Below are positions 1 to 25,741 of a stretch of 25,741 nt of DNA, one piece after another. Position 1 is the stretch's first letter; each line of letters opens with the position of its first letter. This DNA comes from Myxococcales bacterium (GTDB taxonomy: Bacteria > Myxococcota_A > UBA9042). The notes beneath the pieces were generated by a model that saw nothing but the letters and a program-made list of their open reading frames with translations, made no database searches and was not told where the DNA came from. The stretch spans positions 1-25,741 of the forward strand of contig JBBISH010000093.1 of assembly GCA_037441385.1 (NCBI GenBank), given 5' to 3'. The translations under genes were made by a program, and so were the position numbers.

Positions 1-2211
1 TGCACCGTGGGCGACGGCTGCAGCGGCGGCACGTGCTATGCGGGCTCGCCCAAGTTCTGCGACGACGGCAACCCGTGCACCAACGACGCGTGCTCGCTAG
101 GCACCTGCACGTCGGCCAACAACAACAACCTGTGCGACGACGGCGATCCTTGCACGCTGGGCGACGCGTGCGTCTTGGGCGCCTGCAAGGCCGGCAGCAG
201 CGCGCCGGTGTGCGACGACGCCAACTTGTGCACAGACGACAGTTGCCAGAAGTATTTTGGCTGCCAGAACAACCCCAATTCGTTGGCGTGCAACGACAAC
301 AACGCCTGCACGAGCGGTGACGTCTGCAAGGGCGGCCTGTGCAGTGGCGCGACTAGCGTGGTGTGCGACGACAAAAACGGATGCACCAAGGACACTTGCG
401 ACCCCACCAAGGGGTGCCAGTCCGCGCCCGACCCCGCGCTTTGCGACGACAAGAATGTCTGCACCACCGACTCGTGCGCAGCGCCCGCCGGCACCTGCAG
501 CCACGCCGCCATCGCCAACTGCTGCGCCAAACAGGCCGACTGCGACGACGGCAGCGCGTGCACGACCGACCTGTGCCTTGCCAACCAGTGCCAGCACGCG
601 AGCAACGGCACCTGCTGCAGCGTGGACGCCGACTGCAAAGACGACTCGCTCTGCACCAGCGACACCTGCGTCTTGGGCAAGTGCCAGCACCCGGCCGCCA
701 CGCCGCCGCCAGCCCCCTTGGCGTCGGTCGGCTTCGAGAGCGCAGACTTGCCGAACTGGGTCACACCGGCCGCGGTCAATTCGTTTGTGTGGAAGCAAAT
801 CAGCGGCAACAAGTTCGCTACCGGCAGCGGCGCGATCAACTTTGGCAAGAGCGGAGCTGCCTTGAGTGGCTCCCAGGTGTCGAGCCAGGCCGAACTGCTC
901 AGCCCGACTTTTGGCGTGCCGGTGGGCGGAACAACGACACTGACCCTGCAATACAAGCAGGACTGGACCGGCTCCAGCACCACCCCGCTGACCGTGACCA
1001 TCAAGGTGCCCAGCACGGGCAAGACGTGGACGGCCTACAGCGCCACCTATAGCACGACCCTCAAGGCCTGGACGGCGATCAGCGTGGACCTGACGCCCTT
1101 TGGCGGCCAAAGCGTGCAAATCGGCTTCAAGGCCAGCATCTACGCGGCGTCCACCTCGACCGGCACGGGCCTGTGGCTCGACGATGTGGCGGTCGGGTGG
1201 AGCTGCACGCCCAAACCGTGCTCGGTCGACAGCACCTGCAGCACCACGGCCACCTGCGCCACGGGTCAGTGCATCTCGGGCGGCTGCACCTATCAGTACC
1301 TGTGCTGCGCCACCGCGGCCGAGTGCGACGACAAGATCGCCTGCACCACCGACACGTGCACCAGCGGCAAGTGCGCGCACGCCAAGTCGACCGGTTGCTG
1401 CCTCAGCGCCACGGACTGCAGCGACACGAGCACTTGCACCCAGGACACGTGCGGAGCCGACAACAAGTGCGCCAACACCACCATCACCGACTGCTGCACG
1501 TCGGTCAGCCAGTGCAACGACAACGACGCGTGCACCGTAGACAGCTGCAGCGGCGGGCTCTGCAGCCACCAGAACACCTGCTGCAAAGCCGACGCCGACT
1601 GCAACGACAAGGACGACAAGTGCACCATCGATACGTGCGTCGCCGGCGCATGCAAGTACACGTCGACCGGCGCGGCGGGCTGCTGCCTGCCCACGGTGTA
1701 CAGCGAGGCCTTTGACGGCAACAACGCGGCGACCGCCTTTACCTACGTCAACAGCGCGTTGGGCGTGGGTTGGGGCGCTTGGAACCCGGTTGCCAGCCCG
1801 CCTGGAGCCAAATCCAGCACCGGCGCGCTGTACTACGGCAACCCCAGCACCAAGACGTTCGACAGCGGCAGCGCCAACAGCGGCACCGCCAAGTCGGCCA
1901 AAATCGTCGTGCCCAGCGCCGCGAACTCGCCCAAGTTGAGCTTCAACTTGTATATGGACACGGAGTCGGGCGTGTCCTACGACATGCTGTCCGTGTACCT
2001 GTACGTCGACGGCATCAAGCAAGGTACGGCTGCCTGGACCAAAAGCAGCTCGACCACCATGCAGGCCTGGCAGGCGGTCGCGGTCGACTTGACGGCGTAC
2101 AAGGGCAAGTCCGTGGAGTTCGAATTCCTGTTCAACACCAACGACGCCGTCAGCAACTCCGGGCTGGGTGTCCTCATCGACGACGTCGCCGTGGTGCAGA
2201 CGTGTCCATAG
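1..2211 (+). CDS. 5'-truncated large Cys-rich repeat surface/secreted protein (CDDGNxCTxDxC, Dictyostelium-CTDC-like repeats) with two MAM/jelly-roll-like domains
   Basis: Frame is open from base 1 (tgc acc gtg...) to TAG at 2209-2211. Many CDD/CNDxxxCTxDxC repeats; two non-Cys domains ending GLWLDDV and GVLIDDV, each with a W..isVDLTp(F/Y).G.SV motif. Confidence 0.85.
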   Translation, partial: CTVGDGCSGGTCYAGSPKFCDDGNPCTNDACSLGTCTSANNNNLCDDGDPCTLGDACVLGACKAGSSAPVCDDANLCTDDSCQKYFGCQNNPNSLACNDNNACTSGDVCKGGLCSGATSVVCDDKNGCTKDTCDPTKGCQSAPDPALCDDKNVCTTDSCAAPAGTCSHAAIANCCAKQADCDDGSACTTDLCLANQCQHASNGTCCSVDADCKDDSLCTSDTCVLGKCQHPAATPPPAPLASVGFESADLPNWVTPAAVNSFVWKQISGNKFATGSGAINFGKSGAALSGSQVSSQAELLSPTFGVPVGGTTTLTLQYKQDWTGSSTTPLTVTIKVPSTGKTWTAYSATYSTTLKAWTAISVDLTPFGGQSVQIGFKASIYAASTSTGTGLWLDDVAVGWSCTPKPCSVDSTCSTTATCATGQCISGGCTYQYLCCATAAECDDKIACTTDTCTSGKCAHAKSTGCCLSATDCSDTSTCTQDTCGADNKCANTTITDCCTSVSQCNDNDACTVDSCSGGLCSHQNTCCKADADCNDKDDKCTIDTCVAGACKYTSTGAAGCCLPTVYSEAFDGNNAATAFTYVNSALGVGWGAWNPVASPPGAKSSTGALYYGNPSTKTFDSGSANSGTAKSAKIVVPSAANSPKLSFNLYMDTESGVSYDMLSVYLYVDGIKQGTAAWTKSSSTTMQAWQAVAVDLTAYKGKSVEFEFLFNTNDAVSNSGLGVLIDDVAVVQTCP

Positions 2212-7325: not shown

Positions 7326-8651
7326 ATGCCGCAACCCGCCACGACTGCGCCTGTTCTCGCCCTGGGCGACCTGACCTTGCCGGTGGGGTCGACCCAGACG
7401 ATACGGCGGATCCTCCAAGGCTGGCTGGCCAAGCTTCTGCAAGACTTCTGCGCAATTGCGCCGAGTGCGCTGACGATGGCGAACCGACCGCTGCTCAGCC
7501 GCACCGTGCAAGTCCTGGCGCGCGGTGATCGCAAGTTGGTCCTGCAATTGTTGCGCTTGCCAACGATTTCGACGCCGATTCAGTGCGCCCTGAAGCAGCT
7601 GCGGCCCGGCGGCGATGGCCCGGCACTGAACCACTGGCTGCGCGAGGCCTGCGCCCTGATTTGGCTGGAGCTCGCGGCCCACCAGGCCATCGACAGTCCC
7701 CTGTCTTTGCCCGCCGACGGCTGGCTCCCCACGTTGCTGTCGCCGACGCTGAACTTGCGCATCGAGGCGGGACCAACGGCGGAGCAATGGGTTTTTGAGG
7801 CGGGGCGGGTGGGCGCGGTCGTGGCCGGCAAGGCGCACTGGCTGGATTTGGCCGCGGCGGCGCAACCAGACGCGATCGCCCACCTGGACGGAGCGAGCAT
7901 CGATCGGCCCTACCACGCGGTAGTGCCAGGCGTTTGGCTGGCGACGGCCGACAACAACCCGCTGGCCGACTTTGAAGCGCACCCCGACAAGTCGGGCAAC
8001 GCGATGAGCCTGGGTGGCCAGCCTGTACAAGCCTGGGTCGAGGCGCTGCGAACCAGCTTTGCTTTGCTGGACGAGCATTTGCCTCTGCTGGGCGAGGAGT
8101 TGCGCTGGGTACTGCGGCTCATCGTGCCGGTGGGCTACGACGCCGAGCGCCACCTGTCGGCCAGCTACCAAGAGGCGGTGGGCATCATCTACATGACGCT
8201 GCACCCCCAGCCGATGACGATGGTCGAGGCGCTGATCCACGAGTATCAGCACAACAAGATCAACGCGGTATTTGGCCTGGACCCTCTCTTGCACAACGCT
8301 TGGTCGCCGCTGTACGCCTCGCCCGTCCGCCCGGATCCGCGGCCGCTGCACGGGGTGGTGCTGGCCGTGCACGCGTTCCAGGCGGTTGCCGAGCTGTACC
8401 GGGCATGGGCCGCGGCTGGCCATCCTTGGTCGACCCAGCCGAGCTGGAACGAACGCTTCAAGAAAATCATCGAGTTGGACCACCAGGGTGCCTTGACGGT
8501 GCTGGAACACGCCAAAGCGACCGCGACGGGCGCCAACTACTTCGACGAAATGCGTAGACTAGACGGCCAGTTGCAGATCATCCGCAGCGAGCGCTGGCCC
8601 AATCGACCAGAAACGAGCGGAAATCTGGACGAGTTGGCCGGTCATGACTGA
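7326..8651 (+). CDS. HExxH motif domain protein (aKG-HExxH/FxsB C-terminal-like putative peptide-modifying enzyme)
   Basis: AGGA RBS. HLSASYQEAVG, EALIHEYQHNKI and YASPVRPDPRPLHGVVLAVHAF match the HExxH...PxRxDxRP...H architecture. Confidence 0.8.
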   Translation: MPQPATTAPVLALGDLTLPVGSTQTIRRILQGWLAKLLQDFCAIAPSALTMANRPLLSRTVQVLARGDRKLVLQLLRLPTISTPIQCALKQLRPGGDGPALNHWLREACALIWLELAAHQAIDSPLSLPADGWLPTLLSPTLNLRIEAGPTAEQWVFEAGRVGAVVAGKAHWLDLAAAAQPDAIAHLDGASIDRPYHAVVPGVWLATADNNPLADFEAHPDKSGNAMSLGGQPVQAWVEALRTSFALLDEHLPLLGEELRWVLRLIVPVGYDAERHLSASYQEAVGIIYMTLHPQPMTMVEALIHEYQHNKINAVFGLDPLLHNAWSPLYASPVRPDPRPLHGVVLAVHAFQAVAELYRAWAAAGHPWSTQPSWNERFKKIIELDHQGALTVLEHAKATATGANYFDEMRRLDGQLQIIRSERWPNRPETSGNLDELAGHD

Positions 8652-8700
8652 AAATGCCAGCGCCAACCGGCAGGTCCGGCAGGCAGAGGTTCGGCGGTGA
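8644..8700 (+). CDS. Possible 18-aa small ORF MTENASANRQVRQAEVRR
   Basis: Its ATG overlaps the HExxH stop (ATGACTGA) and its TGA overlaps the next GTG start (GTGA). No other support. Confidence 0.2.
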   Translation: MTENASANRQVRQAEVRR

Positions 8701-10568
8701 AAATCTCGACTTGGGCTTTTCTGGCGATGGCGGCCCTGGCTGGCTGCGTCAATTCGGCGCAACCCACGGTCTACGACGGCTACAGCAGCGGCGACGCGCT
8801 CGCCCAGGATGCGACCCCCACGGACGCTGCCGCCGACGCCACACCGGTCGAGGACACCGCCCCGGCCGACAGTGAGGCCGACGTCTCGCCCACGGCCGAC
8901 ACGGCTCCCAGCGCCGACAGCAGCGATACCGCGGATGCAGCATCTTCGTGCATGACCCAGGCCGAGTGCGACGCCCTGCTGAAGCCCGGCCCATGCGAAT
9001 ACACGCGCTGCGTCCCCAACGGCGCCAGCAACTACTGCGAGCTCCTTCAGCAAAAAGACGGAATGGCCTGCGCCGACGCCGAGTGCCTGGTCGAGGCCGG
9101 CTCGCCGATTCTGCAGGGACGCCTATGCCTGGCCGGCAAGTGCGGGGCTGTGGCCACGACGGTCAGCTGCGACGACAAAGATGCTTGCACCGTAGACACT
9201 TGCAACATCGCCACGGGCTGCGCCCACAGCCTGCTGCCCTGCAATGACAAGGATCCCTGCACCAAGGACACCTGCGATCCCGCCAGCGGCTGTTTGTTCC
9301 CGCCCGACCAGGCGACGCCCTGCGACGACGGCAACGCCTGCACCGTGGGCGACAAGTGCGCGGACGGCTCGTGCGTGGGCGGCAGCGCCAAGAGTTGCCC
9401 GGCGCCAACGGCCTGCCACACGGTCGCCTGCAACTCGGCCAGCGGCGCCTGCGAAGTGGCCAACGCGGCCGACGGCAGCCCATGCGACGACGGCAACTCG
9501 TGCACCAAGCAAGACAGCTGCAACAAGGGCGTCTGCGTCGGCGCCGGCAACCCGTGCGACGACGGCAACTTGTGCACGTTCGACGGGTGTGCATCGGGCT
9601 CGTGCACCACCAAGGGCATCGACGGACCGTGCGACTTGGACGGCTCGGCCTGCACCGCCGACCTCTGCGCCCAGGGGGCCTGCTCGCCGGGCGGCCCACC
9701 CAACTGCGACGACGGCAACCTTTGCACGATCGACAGTTGCGACCCCGCCGCCGGCTGCGTCCACAAAGCCGAGGCCTTTGCCACCCCCTGCGCGACCGGC
9801 AAGTGGTGCGGCCAGGGCATGGCCGCCAAGCAGTGTGTCGCCGCGACCCCACCGCCGGGCATGGCCTACATACCTGGAACCACGGTTAATTTGGGCTGCA
9901 ACACCGCAGTGGACAACCAGTGCAACCCCGACGAAAAGCCGGCGCACCCCGTGCAATTGCCGTCGTACTTCATCGACTTGAACGAGGCAACGGTGGCGCT
10001 GTACCAAGCCTGCGTACAAGGGGGCGCCTGCACTGTCCCTGCCACCGGCGCGAACGCGACCTACGGCGTCGCCGGCAAAAGCAGCCATCCAGTCAACTAC
10101 GTGACCTGGGCCCAGGCCGCCACTTTCTGCCTTTGGGCTGGCGGTTCGCGCCTGTGCAGCGAGGCCGAGTGGGAGTACGCCGCGCGCGGCAGCGACGGCC
10201 GGCGCTTTCCGTGGGGCAACACCGCGTCCACGGCGTGCGACTTCGCCAACTGGGGCGGCGCCTGTGGCAGCGCCACGCCCGTTGGTCAATTCACCAAGGG
10301 AAATGCGCCCTTTGGTCAGAGCGATATGGCTGGCAACGTCCGCGAATGGACCTCGGACTGGTACGCTTCGGGCTATTACGCGCAGTTGGCGGCCAGCGGC
10401 AACGCTGCCGTGTCGCCCGCCGGCCCGGCGACCGGCACCGCGCGCGTCGTGCGCGGCGGCTATTTCGCCGACAACGCCCCCGAAATCCGCACATCGGCGC
10501 GCGCCCTGGCCACCCCGCAGACGGCGACCTTCAGCATCGGCATTCGCTGCTGCCGCACGCCCAAGTAG
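8697..10568 (+). CDS. Cys-rich repeat lipoprotein with C-terminal SUMF1/FGE-like (formylglycine-generating enzyme family) domain
   Basis: GAGGT RBS; lipobox LAGC; D/T/A/S-rich linker; CDDGNxCT repeats; HPVNYVTW, SEAEWEYAARG, FPWG, DMAGNVREW, RVVRGG and GIRCC motifs. Confidence 0.88.
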   Translation: MKISTWAFLAMAALAGCVNSAQPTVYDGYSSGDALAQDATPTDAAADATPVEDTAPADSEADVSPTADTAPSADSSDTADAASSCMTQAECDALLKPGPCEYTRCVPNGASNYCELLQQKDGMACADAECLVEAGSPILQGRLCLAGKCGAVATTVSCDDKDACTVDTCNIATGCAHSLLPCNDKDPCTKDTCDPASGCLFPPDQATPCDDGNACTVGDKCADGSCVGGSAKSCPAPTACHTVACNSASGACEVANAADGSPCDDGNSCTKQDSCNKGVCVGAGNPCDDGNLCTFDGCASGSCTTKGIDGPCDLDGSACTADLCAQGACSPGGPPNCDDGNLCTIDSCDPAAGCVHKAEAFATPCATGKWCGQGMAAKQCVAATPPPGMAYIPGTTVNLGCNTAVDNQCNPDEKPAHPVQLPSYFIDLNEATVALYQACVQGGACTVPATGANATYGVAGKSSHPVNYVTWAQAATFCLWAGGSRLCSEAEWEYAARGSDGRRFPWGNTASTACDFANWGGACGSATPVGQFTKGNAPFGQSDMAGNVREWTSDWYASGYYAQLAASGNAAVSPAGPATGTARVVRGGYFADNAPEIRTSARALATPQTATFSIGIRCCRTPK

Positions 10569-10668: not shown

Positions 10669-11451
10669 TCAGCCGGGTTGCACGCCCGAGCGCTCGCTTT
10701 CTTGGCGTTCCCACTTGCTGATCAGCTGCAGCACCTTGGCTTCCAGCTTGGCGGGGTCGATCTTGCGCTCGTCTTTGGCGTCTTGGTCGGTCTTGACCGG
10801 CGCAGCCGGACTGCTGGGCGCCGCCGACATCGCTGGGGCACCACCGCCGTCCTCTTGAGCAAATACACGGCGTTCGGCCTCGCGTGCCTGCTTTTCGTGC
10901 GCTTCTGCACCGGCCGCATCCTCGTCGCCGCGCTTGCGCTCGTTCAGCACCGGGCTCTGAAAGGCCGAGGGCATGCCGCCGCCCAGCCCAGGAGCGACAC
11001 CGCCGCCCGCGCCAACCCCCGCGTCCGGCGGAGCGACGTGGGCCAGCTCGTGGGCCAGGACCGCCAGACCGCCGCGCGTAGTGGGATCGAACTCGCCCTG
11101 CCCAAAGAAGATGTCGCTGTCGCCCACGGCAAACGCGCGCGCCGACAGCGCTCCGGCGGCCTGTTGGGCCTTGGGCCCGCGGTGGATCCGCACCTGATCC
11201 AGGCGCTCACTGCGGAAGCCCATGCGCGACAAGCGATCGATGAGCGCGGGGTCCAGCTTGGTGGGCACCTGGTCGGACAGCCAGCGCGCGCCCATGTTGG
11301 CGTAGCGGTCTGTCAGCGACTTGCCCATCTGCGCCGTTTGCGCGCCGGCCAATTGCGAAGCCAGCACGCCGGGATCCGCACCCTTGGCTGCGGCCAGCTC
11401 GGCGGCCTGGGCTTGCAGTTCCAGCAGTTCGTCGTCGCGCATGTTCGCCAT
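10669..11451 (-). CDS. eCIS core domain (DUF4157) protein
   Basis: Start ATG with GGAG RBS (MANMRDDE). LDQVRIHRG..A..AA..LSARAFAVGDSDIFFGQGEFDP...G..VLAHELAHV...E..A is the DUF4157 signature. Confidence 0.85.
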   Translation of the reverse strand: MANMRDDELLELQAQAAELAAAKGADPGVLASQLAGAQTAQMGKSLTDRYANMGARWLSDQVPTKLDPALIDRLSRMGFRSERLDQVRIHRGPKAQQAAGALSARAFAVGDSDIFFGQGEFDPTTRGGLAVLAHELAHVAPPDAGVGAGGGVAPGLGGGMPSAFQSPVLNERKRGDEDAAGAEAHEKQAREAERRVFAQEDGGGAPAMSAAPSSPAAPVKTDQDAKDERKIDPAKLEAKVLQLISKWERQESERSGVQPG

Positions 11452-11590
11452 AGCAACTCCGGGCAGGGTCGTGGCACCCATGGGGCAGGCTAGCACGACC
11501 GCCGCCTGGGCGCCACGCTGGAAGTGGGCGGGCGGCCCGGCTGGGGTCGCCATACCTCAGCAAGCGGCAAGGCACAACTGGTCGGCGGGT

Positions 11591-11619
11591 TTGACAGTCT
11601 GCCGGCAACACGGAATCCT
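11591..11619 (+). promoter_or_regulatory. Putative sigma70 promoter, -35 box inside an inverted repeat
   Basis: TTGACA at 11591-11596, 17-bp spacer, AATCCT; flanked by gtcggcggg/tctgccggc. Confidence 0.35.
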
Positions 11620-11657
11620 TGGTCCCACCGGCCGCACGCGCGCCGCAGGCAACCGCC

Positions 11658-12515
11658 ATGGCTGAGCCCCAAACTGCGCAGAATCGGCAAGGGCCAGCAC
11701 AGCCAAAACCGCCGCAGGTGCAGACCCAGCAAATCCCGGTGCCACAAGCACAAATCGAGTTCCCGGATGCTCCGCTGCTGCCCGAGCGGCGCGATCACCC
11801 GTCGTCGGGCTATGTGCCCCTGGCCACCGGTGGCCTCGTGCGGCAGTTTCTGCTGGCGACCATGCCATCGCCTTGGGCTGGCCTGGCTGGCCTGTCGCTG
11901 GCGGCGTGGCGACTGATGACGTTGCACGCGCTGGGGGCCTTGCTGACCGGTCCGTGGCTGGATCTCGCCCTGGGTGTGCTGGCGGATGTGGCGCTGGCCC
12001 ACGGCATGATGGCAGCGGTGCGGCTTTTGTCGCTGTTGGGCAGCGAGCGCGCCGATGCCCGCGGCGAGGTGGCGCGCAACGCGTCGCTGGCGTTTGCGGT
12101 GCTCTGGATGTTCATGATGCTCTTGCGGTTGGCGGGCCTGGTGCACGCGTCGCTGCACGGCTTTGCTATCTCGGGTGAGTTTTGGGTCGGGCTGCTCCGG
12201 CGTCCGGTGGCGACGCTGACGCAAGGAGCGGTCTGGGTTGCGCTTGCCGTGGCGTTGGCGTCGTCGGCCTTGGCGCGCTACTGCATGACCAACGACATGG
12301 AAGCGCCCGAAGTGCTACAAGACACCCTGCCCCGCCAGCGTTTGCTGTTGGCCACGGCGACCACGCTGGCCCTCGCCATCCTCGCGGTGGTGGCCATTCA
12401 CGCCAAGGCGCCTGGCCGAATCGACGCGGCGACGACCAGCCCGGACCTGACGAGCCTGGACAGCTTGGCGCGCGCTCTGCAAGATCCCAGCCTGCGTTCT
12501 TCTGCCGACGAGTAG
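11658..12515 (+). CDS. Multi-pass membrane protein resembling the N-terminal membrane domain of the downstream LtaS-like protein
   Basis: About five hydrophobic segments; by-eye colinear similarity to 12522-13200; stop codon lies 6 nt before the next ATG. Confidence 0.7.
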   Translation: MAEPQTAQNRQGPAQPKPPQVQTQQIPVPQAQIEFPDAPLLPERRDHPSSGYVPLATGGLVRQFLLATMPSPWAGLAGLSLAAWRLMTLHALGALLTGPWLDLALGVLADVALAHGMMAAVRLLSLLGSERADARGEVARNASLAFAVLWMFMMLLRLAGLVHASLHGFAISGEFWVGLLRRPVATLTQGAVWVALAVALASSALARYCMTNDMEAPEVLQDTLPRQRLLLATATTLALAILAVVAIHAKAPGRIDAATTSPDLTSLDSLARALQDPSLRSSADE

Positions 12516-18003: not shown

Positions 18004-18141
18004 TTGGTCGGCCGGCTGCCGCTTGGGCGCCGGGCGACGCGTCTTGTACGCCTTTGGCGGGTCGCTGTCAACTGCCCCCGGGCGAACGGGGTGGCCGCGC
18101 TCGAAGTTGCCAAGCGCCGTCAGTCGGCTACGATCCCGGCG

Positions 18142-18903
18142 ATGCCGCGCCGCCTGCCCAGTTTGCCCCAGCTTGCCGCCCTGCTCGCCGCCTTGCTGAC
18201 GCTCGGTTGGCCGCTCGCGGCCCAGGCCGAGTGGAAGTCCGTGCAGCAAGTCACCTTGGGCACCGCGCAAGTGCTGGAGCAAGGCGCGATCCACTTTGGC
18301 ATCGTGGCGCCCATAGCCTACGGGGCCTCTTCGCGCCTCACGGTGCAGTCGCACCCGATCCTGGACCTGCTGCTGGTGCCCAACCTGGCGTTCCGCTACC
18401 GAATCGTGGACCAGACCCACTACGTCGTGTCGGCCACGGGCAGTTTCAAGCGGTCCTTTGGCCAGGTAGCCGCCACCACCGCGCAGGCCGGGGCCTTGGC
18501 GCCGGGCGAGTTGCTGGGCGGCGGCATCGCGACCTGGTACCCCAACAATTCTTGGGCCATGACGGGTGGCGTCGTCTACGCGGGCCAGTTCGACGAGCGC
18601 ATCAACAACCGCTACGTCGGCCTGTCGCATGGCATTTCGGTGTCGGCCCAGTTGCACTGGCTCGCCCGGCCGAGCGACCTGGTGCAGGTGTCGATGTTGC
18701 AGCGCTACGGAATCAGCGCGGGCAGCTTTAATCGCCCCGAGGTGACGCTGGGCTGGGCGCACGCCTTCCAACGCTGGCTGTCGGGTGCCCATCTGTTGCT
18801 GTCGCTGACCCTGAACGATGCGGCTGGCTACGATATCCCCGGTCTGTCGTGGTTGCAGCGCTGGCCGTTGCTCCCCTACGTGGATCTTTGGTGGAGGCTG
18901 TAG
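18142..18903 (+). CDS. Hypothetical exported protein, possible outer-membrane beta-barrel
   Basis: Signal peptide ending LAAQA; GTAQVLEQG motif; alternating beta-strand pattern; C-terminal PYVDLWWRL. Confidence 0.65.
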   Translation: MPRRLPSLPQLAALLAALLTLGWPLAAQAEWKSVQQVTLGTAQVLEQGAIHFGIVAPIAYGASSRLTVQSHPILDLLLVPNLAFRYRIVDQTHYVVSATGSFKRSFGQVAATTAQAGALAPGELLGGGIATWYPNNSWAMTGGVVYAGQFDERINNRYVGLSHGISVSAQLHWLARPSDLVQVSMLQRYGISAGSFNRPEVTLGWAHAFQRWLSGAHLLLSLTLNDAAGYDIPGLSWLQRWPLLPYVDLWWRL

Positions 18904-19353
18904 GTGGCAACCAAGGAACTCGTCAGCGAATTTGAGGCGCGCCGTGTCGAGCGGATGCTGCGCAGCGCGTGGCCGGGAATGCTGGCCGTGGGCGAAGAAC
19001 TGCGCGTGCTGTCGGGTGTGCTCGACTCGGGGTGGGTGGCCGTTACATGGCAACTAGCTGACGCAGAACGGAAAAACGTCTACACAGTGGAAGTGCGGGT
19101 GGCGCTCGGCACGCCCAAGCAGCCGGGCCTGCGCGAACGGGAGGCGGTCGAGCTGCTCTACGACTTCCTGGCGGCCCAGTTCGAGGATCTGCTGCGCGGC
19201 GACCGGCGGCCCTTTTCGGGTCCGCGCTGGGAGGAAGTTGAATTTGCCGGTCACAAGCTGCACCTGCGCGGCCAGATGGTGGATGAACAGCGCGAGAACG
19301 CCGCAACAACGCTGATCGATGCCGCAGCTGACACCCCGGCCAAGACGCCGTGA
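18904..19353 (+). CDS. Hypothetical protein
   Basis: GTG directly after the upstream TAG, GGAGG RBS at ~18893, protein-like composition. Confidence 0.7.
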   Translation: MATKELVSEFEARRVERMLRSAWPGMLAVGEELRVLSGVLDSGWVAVTWQLADAERKNVYTVEVRVALGTPKQPGLREREAVELLYDFLAAQFEDLLRGDRRPFSGPRWEEVEFAGHKLHLRGQMVDEQRENAATTLIDAAADTPAKTP

Positions 19354-23449: not shown

Positions 23450-24238
23450 ATGAGCGGACACGGACACAGCAGCAGCGGCGGCGGCCTCAACTTGACGCTG
23501 AAGGTCTGGCGGCAAAAAGACGCAGCCAGCCCAGGCGGTTTGGCCTCGTATCAGGTCAGCGGTATCTCGACGGACATGTCGTTCTTGGAGATGTTGGACA
23601 TCCTGAACGAGCAGCTCTTGGAGAAGGGCGAAGAGCCGATCGCCTTTGATCACGACTGCCGCGAGGGCATCTGCGGCATGTGCTCGCTGGTCATCAACGG
23701 CAACCCACACGGGCCCGACTCGGCGACCACCACCTGCCAGTTGCACATGCGCCGCTTCAAAGACGGCGACATCATCACCATCGAGCCCTGGCGGGCCAAG
23801 CCGTTCCCGGTGATCCGCGATCTGGTCGTCGACCGCTCGGCGTTCGATCGCATTCAGGCCCGCGGCGGCTTTGTGTCCGTCAACACCGGCGGCACGCCCG
23901 ACGCCAACGCGATTCCGATCGCCAAGCGCGAAGCCGACTTGTCGATGGACGCCGCCCAGTGCATCGGCTGCGGCGCCTGCGTGGCGGCGTGCAAGAACGC
24001 GTCGGCGATGCTGTTCGTGGGCGCCAAGGTCAGCCAATACCTGCACCTGCCGCAGGGCCAGCCCGAGCGGTACCGCCGCGTGCTGGCGATGATGGAGCAG
24101 CACGACGCCGAGGGCTTTGGCGGCTGCACCAACTTCCAAGAGTGCGAGGCGGCGTGCCCCAAAGAGATCTCGGTGCGCGTCATCGCCGAGATGAACCGCG
24201 ACTTCTTGCGGGCGACCTTGGTGGGCACCGAACTCTAG
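23450..24238 (+). CDS. sdhB: Succinate dehydrogenase/fumarate reductase iron-sulfur subunit
   Basis: [43 protein letters not shown]. Confidence 0.97.
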
Positions 24239-24477
24239 GTCACCCGCGCAGACTGTCCCCTTGCCAACCTCACCGGCTTTGCAGGTCGCTGCGCCAGCCG
24301 CAGAGTCGCGTCGTTGAGTCCGGCCTGGGTACGGCAGATTCGTTAAGCAATTGCGTTTGGCGGCCGGGATCGGTGCCGGTTGTGCTGTGTTTGGGTAGCC
24401 TGGCCCCGGTTGAGCCGAGCGCAAAACTCCGTCACAATACGGGCAGAGTGCAGCGGCGCTCGCCTCGCGGGACGGCA

Positions 24478-25548
24478 ATGACCAGCCACAATTCCAGACC
24501 CGACAGCGATGGCTTTGTCGCGGATGACGGACCAAGTGAAGAGGTGGCGCCGCTCGACGAGACCCGCATCGTGCGGATGCGCCCCATGTCCGGCGGGATC
24601 GCCGCGATGCCGAATTCGGAAGAAGCCGCGCCACCTCACAGCGATGCAGCCGAGCCCACGGACAAACTGCGGGCAGAGCGGCCGAATCGACCGCGGCGTG
24701 CTCTGGGCAGCGATACGGTCGAGTTTGGCTTCGACAGCGCGGCCTCGCACCCATCGCCGATGCGCGCAGAGACCTCGCAACAGCCCGCCCTTGGCGCCAC
24801 CCGAATCGACGCTGCCCAACTCACCAGCTTGAATGCCCTGGCGGCGCGGCTGGGCCACCGATTCCAAAATCAGGTGCTGCTGGTCGAGGCCCTGACCGAT
24901 GCCAGCGTCGACGCCAGCTTGCGCAAGGGTGCGGCGGACAATTGGCGCCTGGCGTTTGTGGGTGTGCGGACCGTGGCACTGGTGCTCAGCGAAATGCTGA
25001 TGCATTTCCGGCGCAACCGCGCCTGGAACGAGCTGGAAGCGGCCATGACCGAGCTGACCCAGGCCGGCACCTTGGCGTCGGTAGCGCGCGAGGTCAACCT
25101 GGGCGGCGAACTGCTGGTCGCCGAGCAGTCCGAGGTGCAAGGCCGGCGCGAGGATCGCATGGCGTTGGCGACGGCGGCTGCCGCGGTGGTGGGCGCGGTG
25201 TTTTTTGACGGCGGCTACGCGGCCGCGCGGCAACTGGTGGTACGTCTCTATGCGTCGCGCGTGGACGCACTGACGGCGCGCCTGCGGGCAGCGGCGATCC
25301 CCACCGCGGCGTCGGCCGTGCCAGTGACCCCGTGCGTGCAGCTGTCGGTCCTGGCCAAGCAGCAAGGCAGCGCGCCCATGTACAGCGCCGCGACCGAGAC
25401 GGTGGGCGAGTACGGCCGGCGCGTGCAAGTCAGCGTGGCGCTACAGCTCAATGGCAAGTCGTGGCGCGCCACCGGCGAAGCTGCAGATGCCACGGCTGCC
25501 GAGAATGACGCAGCCCGGCGGCTCTTGAACCAGCTCGCGCGCGGTTGA
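24478..25548 (+). CDS. RNase III-fold protein with degenerate catalytic motifs, disordered N-terminus and dsRBD-like C-terminus (probable pseudo-nuclease)
   Basis: RLGHRFQNQVLLVEALTDAS, NWRLAFVGV (canonical NERLEFLGD), LASVAREVNLG, LATAAAAVVGAVFFDGG (canonical LADxxEAxIGAxxLD), G.A.....AENDAARRLL. Confidence 0.8.
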   Translation: MTSHNSRPDSDGFVADDGPSEEVAPLDETRIVRMRPMSGGIAAMPNSEEAAPPHSDAAEPTDKLRAERPNRPRRALGSDTVEFGFDSAASHPSPMRAETSQQPALGATRIDAAQLTSLNALAARLGHRFQNQVLLVEALTDASVDASLRKGAADNWRLAFVGVRTVALVLSEMLMHFRRNRAWNELEAAMTELTQAGTLASVAREVNLGGELLVAEQSEVQGRREDRMALATAAAAVVGAVFFDGGYAAARQLVVRLYASRVDALTARLRAAAIPTAASAVPVTPCVQLSVLAKQQGSAPMYSAATETVGEYGRRVQVSVALQLNGKSWRATGEAADATAAENDAARRLLNQLARG

Positions 25549-25741
25549 CCGGCACTCGCAGCGCCCGGGCAACCACTCGAAGCGCCGCTGTGGCTGCGAG
25601 CATCTTTCTCTGCAACGGAATTCCCCAGGAATTCGCAACGTGGTGGAGCCATGACGAAGGCCGACGTGCGCCGCTGGCCATCGTCGCCGTGCTGCCTATA
25701 CTCGCGGCAAGGGGGCTTGCCCCGTGCGGTGGGCGGATGAG

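Follow-up and report, generated by a model that had tools for sequence, protein, structure and literature searches.

A gene near the end of a myxobacterial contig raises the question of what an RNase III is kept for once its catalytic residues are gone. The window, by which we mean the whole stretch of DNA analysed (25,741 nucleotides from a Myxococcales bacterium, GenBank assembly GCA_037441385.1, contig JBBISH010000093.1), carries a dead RNase III paralogue, here called P0001, and its source genome (G000) is 90.9% complete. P0001 is probably a partner or regulator of a working RNase III, a role that has so far been described mainly in eukaryotes, and the evidence that leads to this answer, together with the alternatives, is set out below.

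Domains and catalytic residues of P0001

The P0001 reading frame opens with an ATG at 24478, closes with a TGA at 25548 and has zero internal stops. The gene and its parts are arranged as follows:

24478..25548, + strand: P0001 gene, dead RNase III paralogue, 356 aa (reading frame and Pfam; same start Met in orthologues)
24478..24810, + strand: predicted disordered N-terminus, aa 1-111 (low pLDDT, dN/dS 0.20-0.25)
24811..25293, + strand: RNase III domain with long C-terminal helix, aa 112-272 (alignments, AlphaFold2)
25294..25329, + strand: variable linker, aa 273-284 (pLDDT <50 at aa 274-281)
25330..25545, + strand: dsRBD-fold domain without canonical RNA-contact residues (type-B-like), aa 285-356 (fold, residue table, dN/dS 0.10-0.11)
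24943 (W156), 24952 (A159), 24964 (V163), 25024 (W183), 25171 (T232) and 25180 (A235), + strand: codons of the replaced carboxylates (alignments)

Pfam places a single RNase III domain in P0001, which passes the cut-offs of both PF14622 (59.9 bits, cut-off 35) and PF00636 (30.7 bits, cut-off 27); the protein fails the NCBIfam RNase III equivalog model TIGR02191 (78.2, cut-off 166.25). The AlphaFold2 model, built on a 19-row alignment, also contains one RNase III domain, which is helical and spans aa 112-272, followed by an alpha-beta-beta-beta-alpha domain at aa 285-355. The model superimposes on the Campylobacter jejuni nuclease domain 3o2r_A with a Z-score of 22.5 and an rmsd of 1.3 A over 144 aligned residues and reaches a TM-score of 0.92 with 3o2r_B, and a search of the ESM Atlas returned RNase III clusters only (0.87-0.90). 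The intact open reading frame with an RNase III fold described in the initial annotation, which was made from the sequence alone, is therefore borne out. That annotation had also placed a dsRBD behind the RNase III domain, and as far as the fold is concerned it was correct: aa 110-356 align structurally to residues 1-226 of Escherichia coli 7r97_A, so a dsRBD fold is present. However, P0001 has no match to Pfam dsrm even at E-values up to 1, and its RNA-contact residues are replaced; as modelled, the C-terminal part qualifies as a dsRBD solely through its fold. No zinc-finger families were found among the Pfam matches, again at E-values up to 1. Ahead of the two domains, pLDDT is below 50 across most of aa 1-104, and from this and from the composition we infer that the N-terminus is disordered. 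Three islands of conservation lie within it, one of them the S[DG]GF motif (aa 9-13) and the others at aa 29-36 and 73-85; they were identified in a motif survey and from invariant columns. The linker is the least conserved segment of the protein, with aa 273-283 invariant at 4 of 11 residues.

Catalytic positions were mapped by alignment to E. coli 7r97_A and by profile-profile alignment to 27 canonical sequences (99.9%). Relative to E. coli, E38 is replaced by W156, E41 by A159, D45 by V163, E65 by W183, D114 by T232 and E117 by A235, and in these alignments no acidic residue is found at any of the six valley positions. The loss of all six valley carboxylates from P0001 is confirmed at the level of the alignments. 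The by-eye mapping made at first reading was right for E38, E41, D45, D114 and E117 and had missed E65, and its description of the protein as catalytically dead agrees with what the residues indicate. E. coli RNase III is described as tolerating no substitution of E41, D45 or E117 (PMC10037077), and Mg2+-dependent cleavage of dsRNA by P0001 is predicted, from its residues, to be absent. P0001 keeps F160, G162 and R157 and gains R164 and D141; by alignment D141, an acidic residue that is both new and invariant, lies close to the active site. F160 and G162 are invariant in 19 of 19 rows of our alignment A2, dead and intact alike. Position 164 is arginine in all six dead sequences and leucine in 10 of 10 intact proteins of the Rnc2 group described below, plus L007; arginine is also found here in 40 catalytically intact domains.

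We surveyed 161 proteins, a sample that represents the top of a search with a profile of the dead form and not a census. These gave 169 aligned domains, of which 165 had all four catalytic columns filled. Five domains lack all four carboxylates: those of P0001, P0002, P0013 and P0014, and one domain of the tandem protein P0090.

Selection, gene context and descent from Rnc2

Full-length orthologues of P0001 occur at syntenic positions in two congeneric genomes, G007 (84% identity) and G005 (69%), and a metagenomic protein, P0002, is 83% identical. The frames are open in all of them. Whole-gene dN/dS for the three pairs among G000, G005 and G007 is 0.13, 0.21 and 0.20 (Nei-Gojobori), with bootstrap intervals within 0.09-0.28, values that are approximate given a dS of 0.8-1.2 at high GC3. 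Split by domain, dN/dS comes to 0.03-0.17 in the RNase III domain, 0.10-0.11 in the dsRBD and 0.20-0.25 in the N-terminus, and a 21-codon linker shows no significant constraint. For comparison, canonical rnc gives 0.06-0.12 for the same genome pairs and four neighbouring genes give 0.05-0.23 between G000 and G005; the P0001 gene evolves approximately 1.6-2 times faster than canonical rnc. W156, A159, R164, W183, T232, A235 and D141 are identical in all three genomes, and position 163 reads V/V/I. Because W156, A159, W183, T232 and A235 are invariant at a dS of ~0.8-1.2, the valley surface is constrained. Residues invariant across the three genomes make up 21 of 25 in alpha3, 18 of 20 in alpha6, 24 of 26 in the outer helix alpha7 and 14 of 16 in dsRBD alpha1; overall, alpha3, alpha6, alpha7 and both dsRBD helices are 84-92% invariant. 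P0001 is kept by purifying selection and is not a decaying pseudogene, and the relaxed selection that the initial annotation had named as a sign of decay is not seen in the orthologues (0.13-0.21). Of the 11 genomes in the genus, four yielded no P0001-type gene, and two of these four are at least 90% complete.

Two features lie immediately upstream of the gene:

23450..24238, + strand: sdhB, last gene of the upstream mdh-sdhCAB cluster (Pfam, synteny with G005 and G007)
24410..24438, + strand: promoter-like TTGAGC-N17-CACAAT, ending 39 nt before the ATG (kept in 3/3 genomes; putative function)

The dead copy lies directly after sdhB in G000, G005 and G007, and sdhB is probably a conserved neighbour without a functional link to P0001. 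In all three genomes TTGAGC-N17-CACA(A/C)T is found with the same spacing and at the same distance, and the remaining intergenic DNA differs (lengths, as cut, of 242, 153 and 131 nt). The pattern, which was drawn from these three sequences and whose site scored below threshold in a consensus scan, has four sites genome-wide in G000. On the other side of the dead gene, yaeQ follows in G005 and also in G007, there after an inserted cysteine-rich gene. The last 127 bases of the window (25615-25741) are 99% identical to positions 1475-1600 of G000 contig C11, which hold a promoter-like site and the start of a yaeQ gene, and this likeness is possibly an assembly fork or an insertion variant. The initial annotation had raised a speculative link between the protein and intergenic hairpins, for which no support emerged: Rfam gave only a tRNA in the window, the flanks hold short inverted repeats only, and neither scan offered a candidate RNA target. 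The tRNA gene (RF00005; 17931-18003, - strand) is located between thiE and an unannotated open reading frame. Elsewhere in the window, two proteins have cysteine-rich repeats (PF00526), of which one also contains an InhA-like MAM domain and the other an FGE-sulfatase domain, and a third protein has an eCIS-core domain:

1-2211 (+ strand), 8697-10568 (+ strand) and 10669-11553 (- strand): two PF00526 proteins and the eCIS-core protein (Pfam)

Coding-like reading frames without a Pfam match are present at 7326-8651, 11619-12515, 18004-18903 and 18904-19353, all on the + strand, and the last two are 82-85% conserved in G005.

Two PF00636 matches were found in G000. The second is Rnc itself (P0012; 314 aa, contig C3), which keeps all carboxylates and passes TIGR02191 at 200.2, so the separate intact rnc presumed in the initial annotation is present. 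A six-frame search of G000 with three profiles gave no third RNase III; the only other hit, to the A2 RNase III profile near position 12032 (+ strand) of contig C81, is weak (59 residues, E 0.0075) and probably due to chance. Across 37 genomes of the family, RNase III matches occur in 35 and two copies in nine. The second copy is dead in three of the nine (G000, G005 and G007) and has intact catalytic residues in the other six (G003, G006, G008, G010, G012 and G015, the G006 gene being split over two contig ends). None of the 37 genomes carries both a dead and an intact second copy, and all three with a dead copy have an intact rnc. In these three, canonical rnc (L001:1315-2259, L034 and L035) encodes a histidine at a usually hydrophobic position before E41, which, as the dead-copy genomes form one clade, may reflect shared descent only.

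Across 107 genomes of the class, the close dead form was found in 3, in a survey that read the catalytic residues of some of the weaker out-of-family matches. The G007 orthologue is annotated as a 'hypothetical protein'. Word-index protein searches gave P0002 as the sole close relative of P0001 and none for P0013, and a scan of metagenome contigs with the alignment of dead forms gave 122 pattern matches with no relative among them. An exhaustive profile search recovered the further dead proteins P0013 (35% identity) and P0014.

We refer to the family-specific second RNase III as Rnc2, a group to which P0015-P0017, P0021 and P0036 also belong. In a 36-row tree to which P0013-P0017, P0021 and P0036 had been added, the dead sequences nest within the Rnc2 clade (support 100/97) and group with G003, G010, P0016 and P0014 (99/99). 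The same grouping was obtained, again at 99/99, in a 24-row subset from which 12 catalytic and RNA-contact columns had been removed. Grouping of P0014 with the other dead sequences, which bears on whether catalysis was lost once or repeatedly, is supported at 95/80, and this falls to 78/73 without the 12 functional columns. An intact Rnc2 clade without the dead sequences is rejected by the AU test (p 0.0055), for which the groups were named after the trees were seen and which involves long branches. These phylogenies show that P0001 descends from Rnc2, which some members of this Myxococcota family carry as their second RNase III. The Rnc2 sequence of G008 stands apart from those of G003 and G010, unlike in the rnc tree.

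Other placements were considered and set aside. In an initial 60-row tree the dead sequences could not be placed and sat on an outside branch of length 2.6 at the midpoint root. With the same reservation about the AU groups and branch lengths, the idea that a recent duplication of rnc in the same genome gave rise to the dead copy is rejected (p 0.0005), and an origin outside the family, with the outgroup, is rejected only marginally (p 0.044).

Intact Rnc2 proteins have N-terminal extensions of 57-117 residues. The S[DG]GF motif is present in five of six dead, five of ten intact Rnc2 and none of 27 canonical proteins, the canonical N-termini being mostly short, and [DE]S[DG]GF has six occurrences in the 1.9 million residues of G000 likely-coding frames. 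Judged from these sequences, the N-terminal extension is older than the loss of catalysis. The disordered N-terminus of ~110 residues noted at first reading is thus predicted to be present but is not a hallmark of the dead form. Intact Rnc2 genes are found in at least three other contexts and have no neighbourhood in common with the dead copies.

RNA contacts and possible functions

The initial annotation likened P0001 to E117 mutants, as a dsRNA binder that does not cleave. Such mutants keep all RNA-binding motifs. In P0001 the Lys/Gln/Glu of RBM1, the GPxH loop of RBM2 and the RBM3 and RBM4 contacts have disappeared, and because these canonical contact residues are gone the analogy is weak; of the original proposal, the predicted absence of cleavage stands. 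In the dsRBD, P0001 has S290 and V291 in region 1, no GPxH, and A338 and T339 in region 3, and so has none of the features of a type A (RNA-binding) dsRBD, namely Gln/Glu in region 1, GPxH and the region-3 lysines. The losses are shared by P0001, P0002, P0013 and the G005 and G007 orthologues: in all five Ser stands in place of the RBM1 Gln, RBM3 has lost its basic residue and RBM4 its glycines, the GPxH loop and the two region-3 lysines are missing, and the His of the T-H-x-S motif has become Asp. The RBM1 glutamine column, which by way of the KTxLQE motif we take to be Aquifex aeolicus Q157, is Gln in 138 of 141 catalytically intact domains. Similarly, at least one basic residue is present in region 3 of 133 of 134 intact domains, where both positions are non-basic in the five. 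One of the two region-3 lysines is already gone in six intact Rnc2 proteins. P0014 has lost E41, D45, D114 and E117 and keeps E65, the RBM1 Gln and the basic pair, and it matches Pfam dsrm. P0013 in addition has neither R157 nor basic residues in RBM4, and the net charge of its RNase III domain is -1. The net charge of the same domain is +1 in P0001 versus -6 in Rnc, and that of the dsRBD is +2 versus 0. Mutation of the RBM1 glutamine is reported to weaken binding strongly (PMC3867540), and dsRBDs without the region-3 lysines are described as binding proteins instead (PMC5716075). However, removal of valley carboxylates is reported to stabilise RNase III-RNA complexes strongly, with E38A and E65A among the stabilising changes (PMC9291653). 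Given this stabilisation and the change in domain charge from -6 to +1, RNA binding by another route is possible.

P0001 retains its fold and both signature residues, Phe and Gly, but has lost the residues for catalysis and RNA contact, and from this pattern we infer a protein-binding pseudoenzyme. As the best explanation, to which we give a probability of roughly 0.4, P0001 would be a pseudo-subunit that pairs with Rnc and either damps it or makes of it a one-strand nicker, as has been proposed for KREPB proteins. Selection would then preserve the dimerisation surface, which we take to comprise alpha3 and the signature Phe, together with other protein-contact surfaces of P0001. The likeliest partner would be P0012, the sole other RNase III found in G000. 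In an Rnc/P0001 heterodimer only a single active site and a single dsRBD would be functional, and the pair would cut one strand, leaving a nick, and would bind RNA less well. With one active site and weaker RNA binding, expression of P0001 from its own putative promoter would therefore damp or retune dsRNA processing, and the disordered N-terminus and the type-B-like dsRBD could receive regulatory signals or hold additional partners. We favour the heterodimer because fold and Phe/Gly are kept where contacts are lost, because artificial heterodimers nick, and because KREPB6-8 are proposed partners of an active enzyme. Purifying selection on both folded domains, the invariance within alpha3 and alpha6, and an intact rnc in all three carrier genomes, with no third RNase III found in G000, also speak for it. 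The two sites of RNase III are reported to be functionally independent, artificial heterodimers nicking dsRNA (PMC3867540, citing Conrad 2002 and Meng 2008), and in KREPB6-8 a mutation of the signature glycine that is predicted to block dimerisation is reported to abolish function (PMC6800513). Nevertheless, conservation of alpha3 and alpha6 would be expected just as much if it served to maintain the fold or to form homodimers. A dominant-negative subunit would, unless it is regulated, come at a cost to the cell, and since rnc is present in 35 of 37 family genomes, its presence beside the dead copy carries no information.

A fuller version of the heterodimer reading is tentative and on the doubtful side. 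Here a bacterial pseudo-subunit would turn Rnc into a regulated one-strand nicker or a damped enzyme, as a counterpart of KREN/KREPB whose steps are visible in relatives. These steps would lead from intact Rnc2 to P0014, with carboxylates lost and RNA-binding motifs kept, and on to P0013 and P0001, with both lost.

It seems rather unlikely to us that P0001 works instead as a homodimer that binds RNA without cleaving it, through a charge-neutralised, metal-free valley, and shields or remodels its targets as RNC1 does, the idea to which the initial annotation gave first place. In its favour, the valley has lost its six acidic residues, R157 is retained and R164 gained, and W156, A159, W183, T232 and A235 are invariant in all three genomes; against it, the canonical RBM1-4 contacts are replaced and the T-H-x-S His is Asp. 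The reported effect of E38A and E65A on the RNA complex (PMC9291653) and the precedent of RNC1, with its dead domains (PMC3867540), would also suit an RNA binder, but the distant dead protein P0013 is without R157 and the basic RBM4 residues and has a net charge of -1, and Arg 164 is common in active enzymes as well.

Also unlikely is a role as an Rnc-independent scaffold or structural protein that binds other proteins or a ribonucleoprotein, for example the ribosome, in the way of mL44. Such a role would be consistent with the loss of both catalysis and canonical RNA contacts from a protein whose surface is strongly conserved (alpha7 and dsRBD alpha1, as counted above) and whose N-terminal islands are conserved. 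mL44 chains are among the structural matches of P0001, at Z-scores of 16-18, but rank below bacterial RNase III and Dicer domains, and beside the P0001 gene only sdhCAB and yaeQ are conserved, with no partner gene. That the gene was missing from four of the 11 genus genomes searched also speaks against its being a core structural component.

Finally, it is very improbable that the gene is a pseudogene in decay or that its product has some nuclease activity left or a rewired one: evolution faster than that of rnc, a very long stem branch, the absence of Rnc2 from most family genomes and the invariant D141 near the site might point that way, but whole-gene dN/dS intervals lie below 0.3 in all three pairs, the orthologous frames are open, the 35%-identical dead P0013 keeps the same pattern, and E. 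coli is reported to tolerate no change at E41, D45 or E117 (PMC10037077).

An active sister paralogue, an intermediate and the cognate Rnc are all at hand, and therefore the nicker or attenuator, shield and scaffold models are separable with purified proteins. If pairing with Rnc is true, control by a paralogue would be added to the autoregulation, T7 kinase and YmdB already known to act on RNase III.

Comparison with other RNase III proteins

P0001 belongs to the RNase III fold family and to the Rnc2 clade, and is not an active Rnc, RNC1, KREPB or mL44. Class I Rnc proteins (7r97, 3o2r, A. aeolicus 2nug and P0012) have the same domain order and fold, at 29-33% identity; unlike them, P0001 lacks the carboxylates and RBM1-4 contacts, has the predicted disordered N-terminus of ~110 residues and scores below the TIGR02191 cut-off. 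Rnc2 shares with P0001 its clade, the N-terminal extension, the S[DG]GF motif and a long linker, but retains E41/D45/D114/E117, E65 and the Gln of RBM1, and its genes have different neighbours. A search of the open-access literature for Rnc2 in Myxococcus found nothing. The RNase III domain plus dsRBD fold of mL44 resembles that of P0001 in the structural matches, whereas mL44 is a eukaryotic ribosomal protein, and P0001 fails the mL44 family model PF22935 (12.3, cut-off 27). In mitoribosomes mL44 has a non-catalytic role.

The trypanosome editosome proteins KREPB4-B10, partners of KREN1-3, have a dead domain, a retained signature glycine and an active paralogue alongside, as does P0001, and KREPB-KREN is a proposed enzyme-pseudoenzyme heterodimer that cuts one strand (PMC6800513, PMC9508840). 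They differ in being essential eukaryotic editosome subunits with U1-like zinc fingers and no dsRBD, in their independent origin, and in that for P0001 the pairing is put forward from its residues and conservation. Chloroplast RNC1 is likewise described as having retained catalytically silent RNase III domains for a function other than catalysis (PMC3867540, PMC8708148), but these are tandem domains in one chain, and RNC1 is reported to be an RNA-binding splicing factor that acts with WTF1 in a plant organelle. Candida Cdl1 is reported to be a dead paralogue that arose from a duplicated active RNase III by precise alteration of catalytic residues, in this like P0001, and unlike it has a fungal Dicer/Rnt1 architecture and an unrelated origin (PMC3579876).

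A 2021 review names RNC1 as its inactive RNase III (PMC8708148), and a review of RNase III asks whether natural non-catalytic roles exist (PMC3867540). No natural bacterial non-catalytic RNase III was found among the open-access matches listed, where a mention in a genome survey may be missed. The printed examples found are eukaryotic (RNC1, KREPB4-10 and Cdl1), and the bacterial evidence consists of engineered mutants and artificial heterodimers. P0001 represents a natural bacterial RNase III pseudoenzyme under selection with a traceable origin and a proposed mechanism. The form is rare (3 of 107 class genomes and a few metagenomic proteins), its hosts are uncultured, and its function is put forward from sequence comparison.

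Other departures from the canonical enzyme were encountered in the survey. P0074 (396 aa) is an RNase III with a single such domain and an extended N-terminus, in which E41 is replaced by Ala and D45 by Asn, with D114 and E117 kept; it is an unrelated and probably inactive form. Four metagenomic proteins, P0050, P0067, P0073 and P0090, have two RNase III domains and one dsRBD each, with carboxylates missing in one or both domains, and could be single-chain dead/live pairs. The first domain of P0090 has none of the four carboxylates and its second domain is intact; its fold model has a pTM of 0.80, and a structure search gave no clear match spanning both domains. In addition, two ESM Atlas clusters of 'hypothetical proteins' (189 and 106 members, ~297 aa) have RNase III domains, dsrm being found in 12% of their members or in none. 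The commonest phylum of both is Bacillota, from five records each, and the two may be another degenerate bacterial RNase III family.
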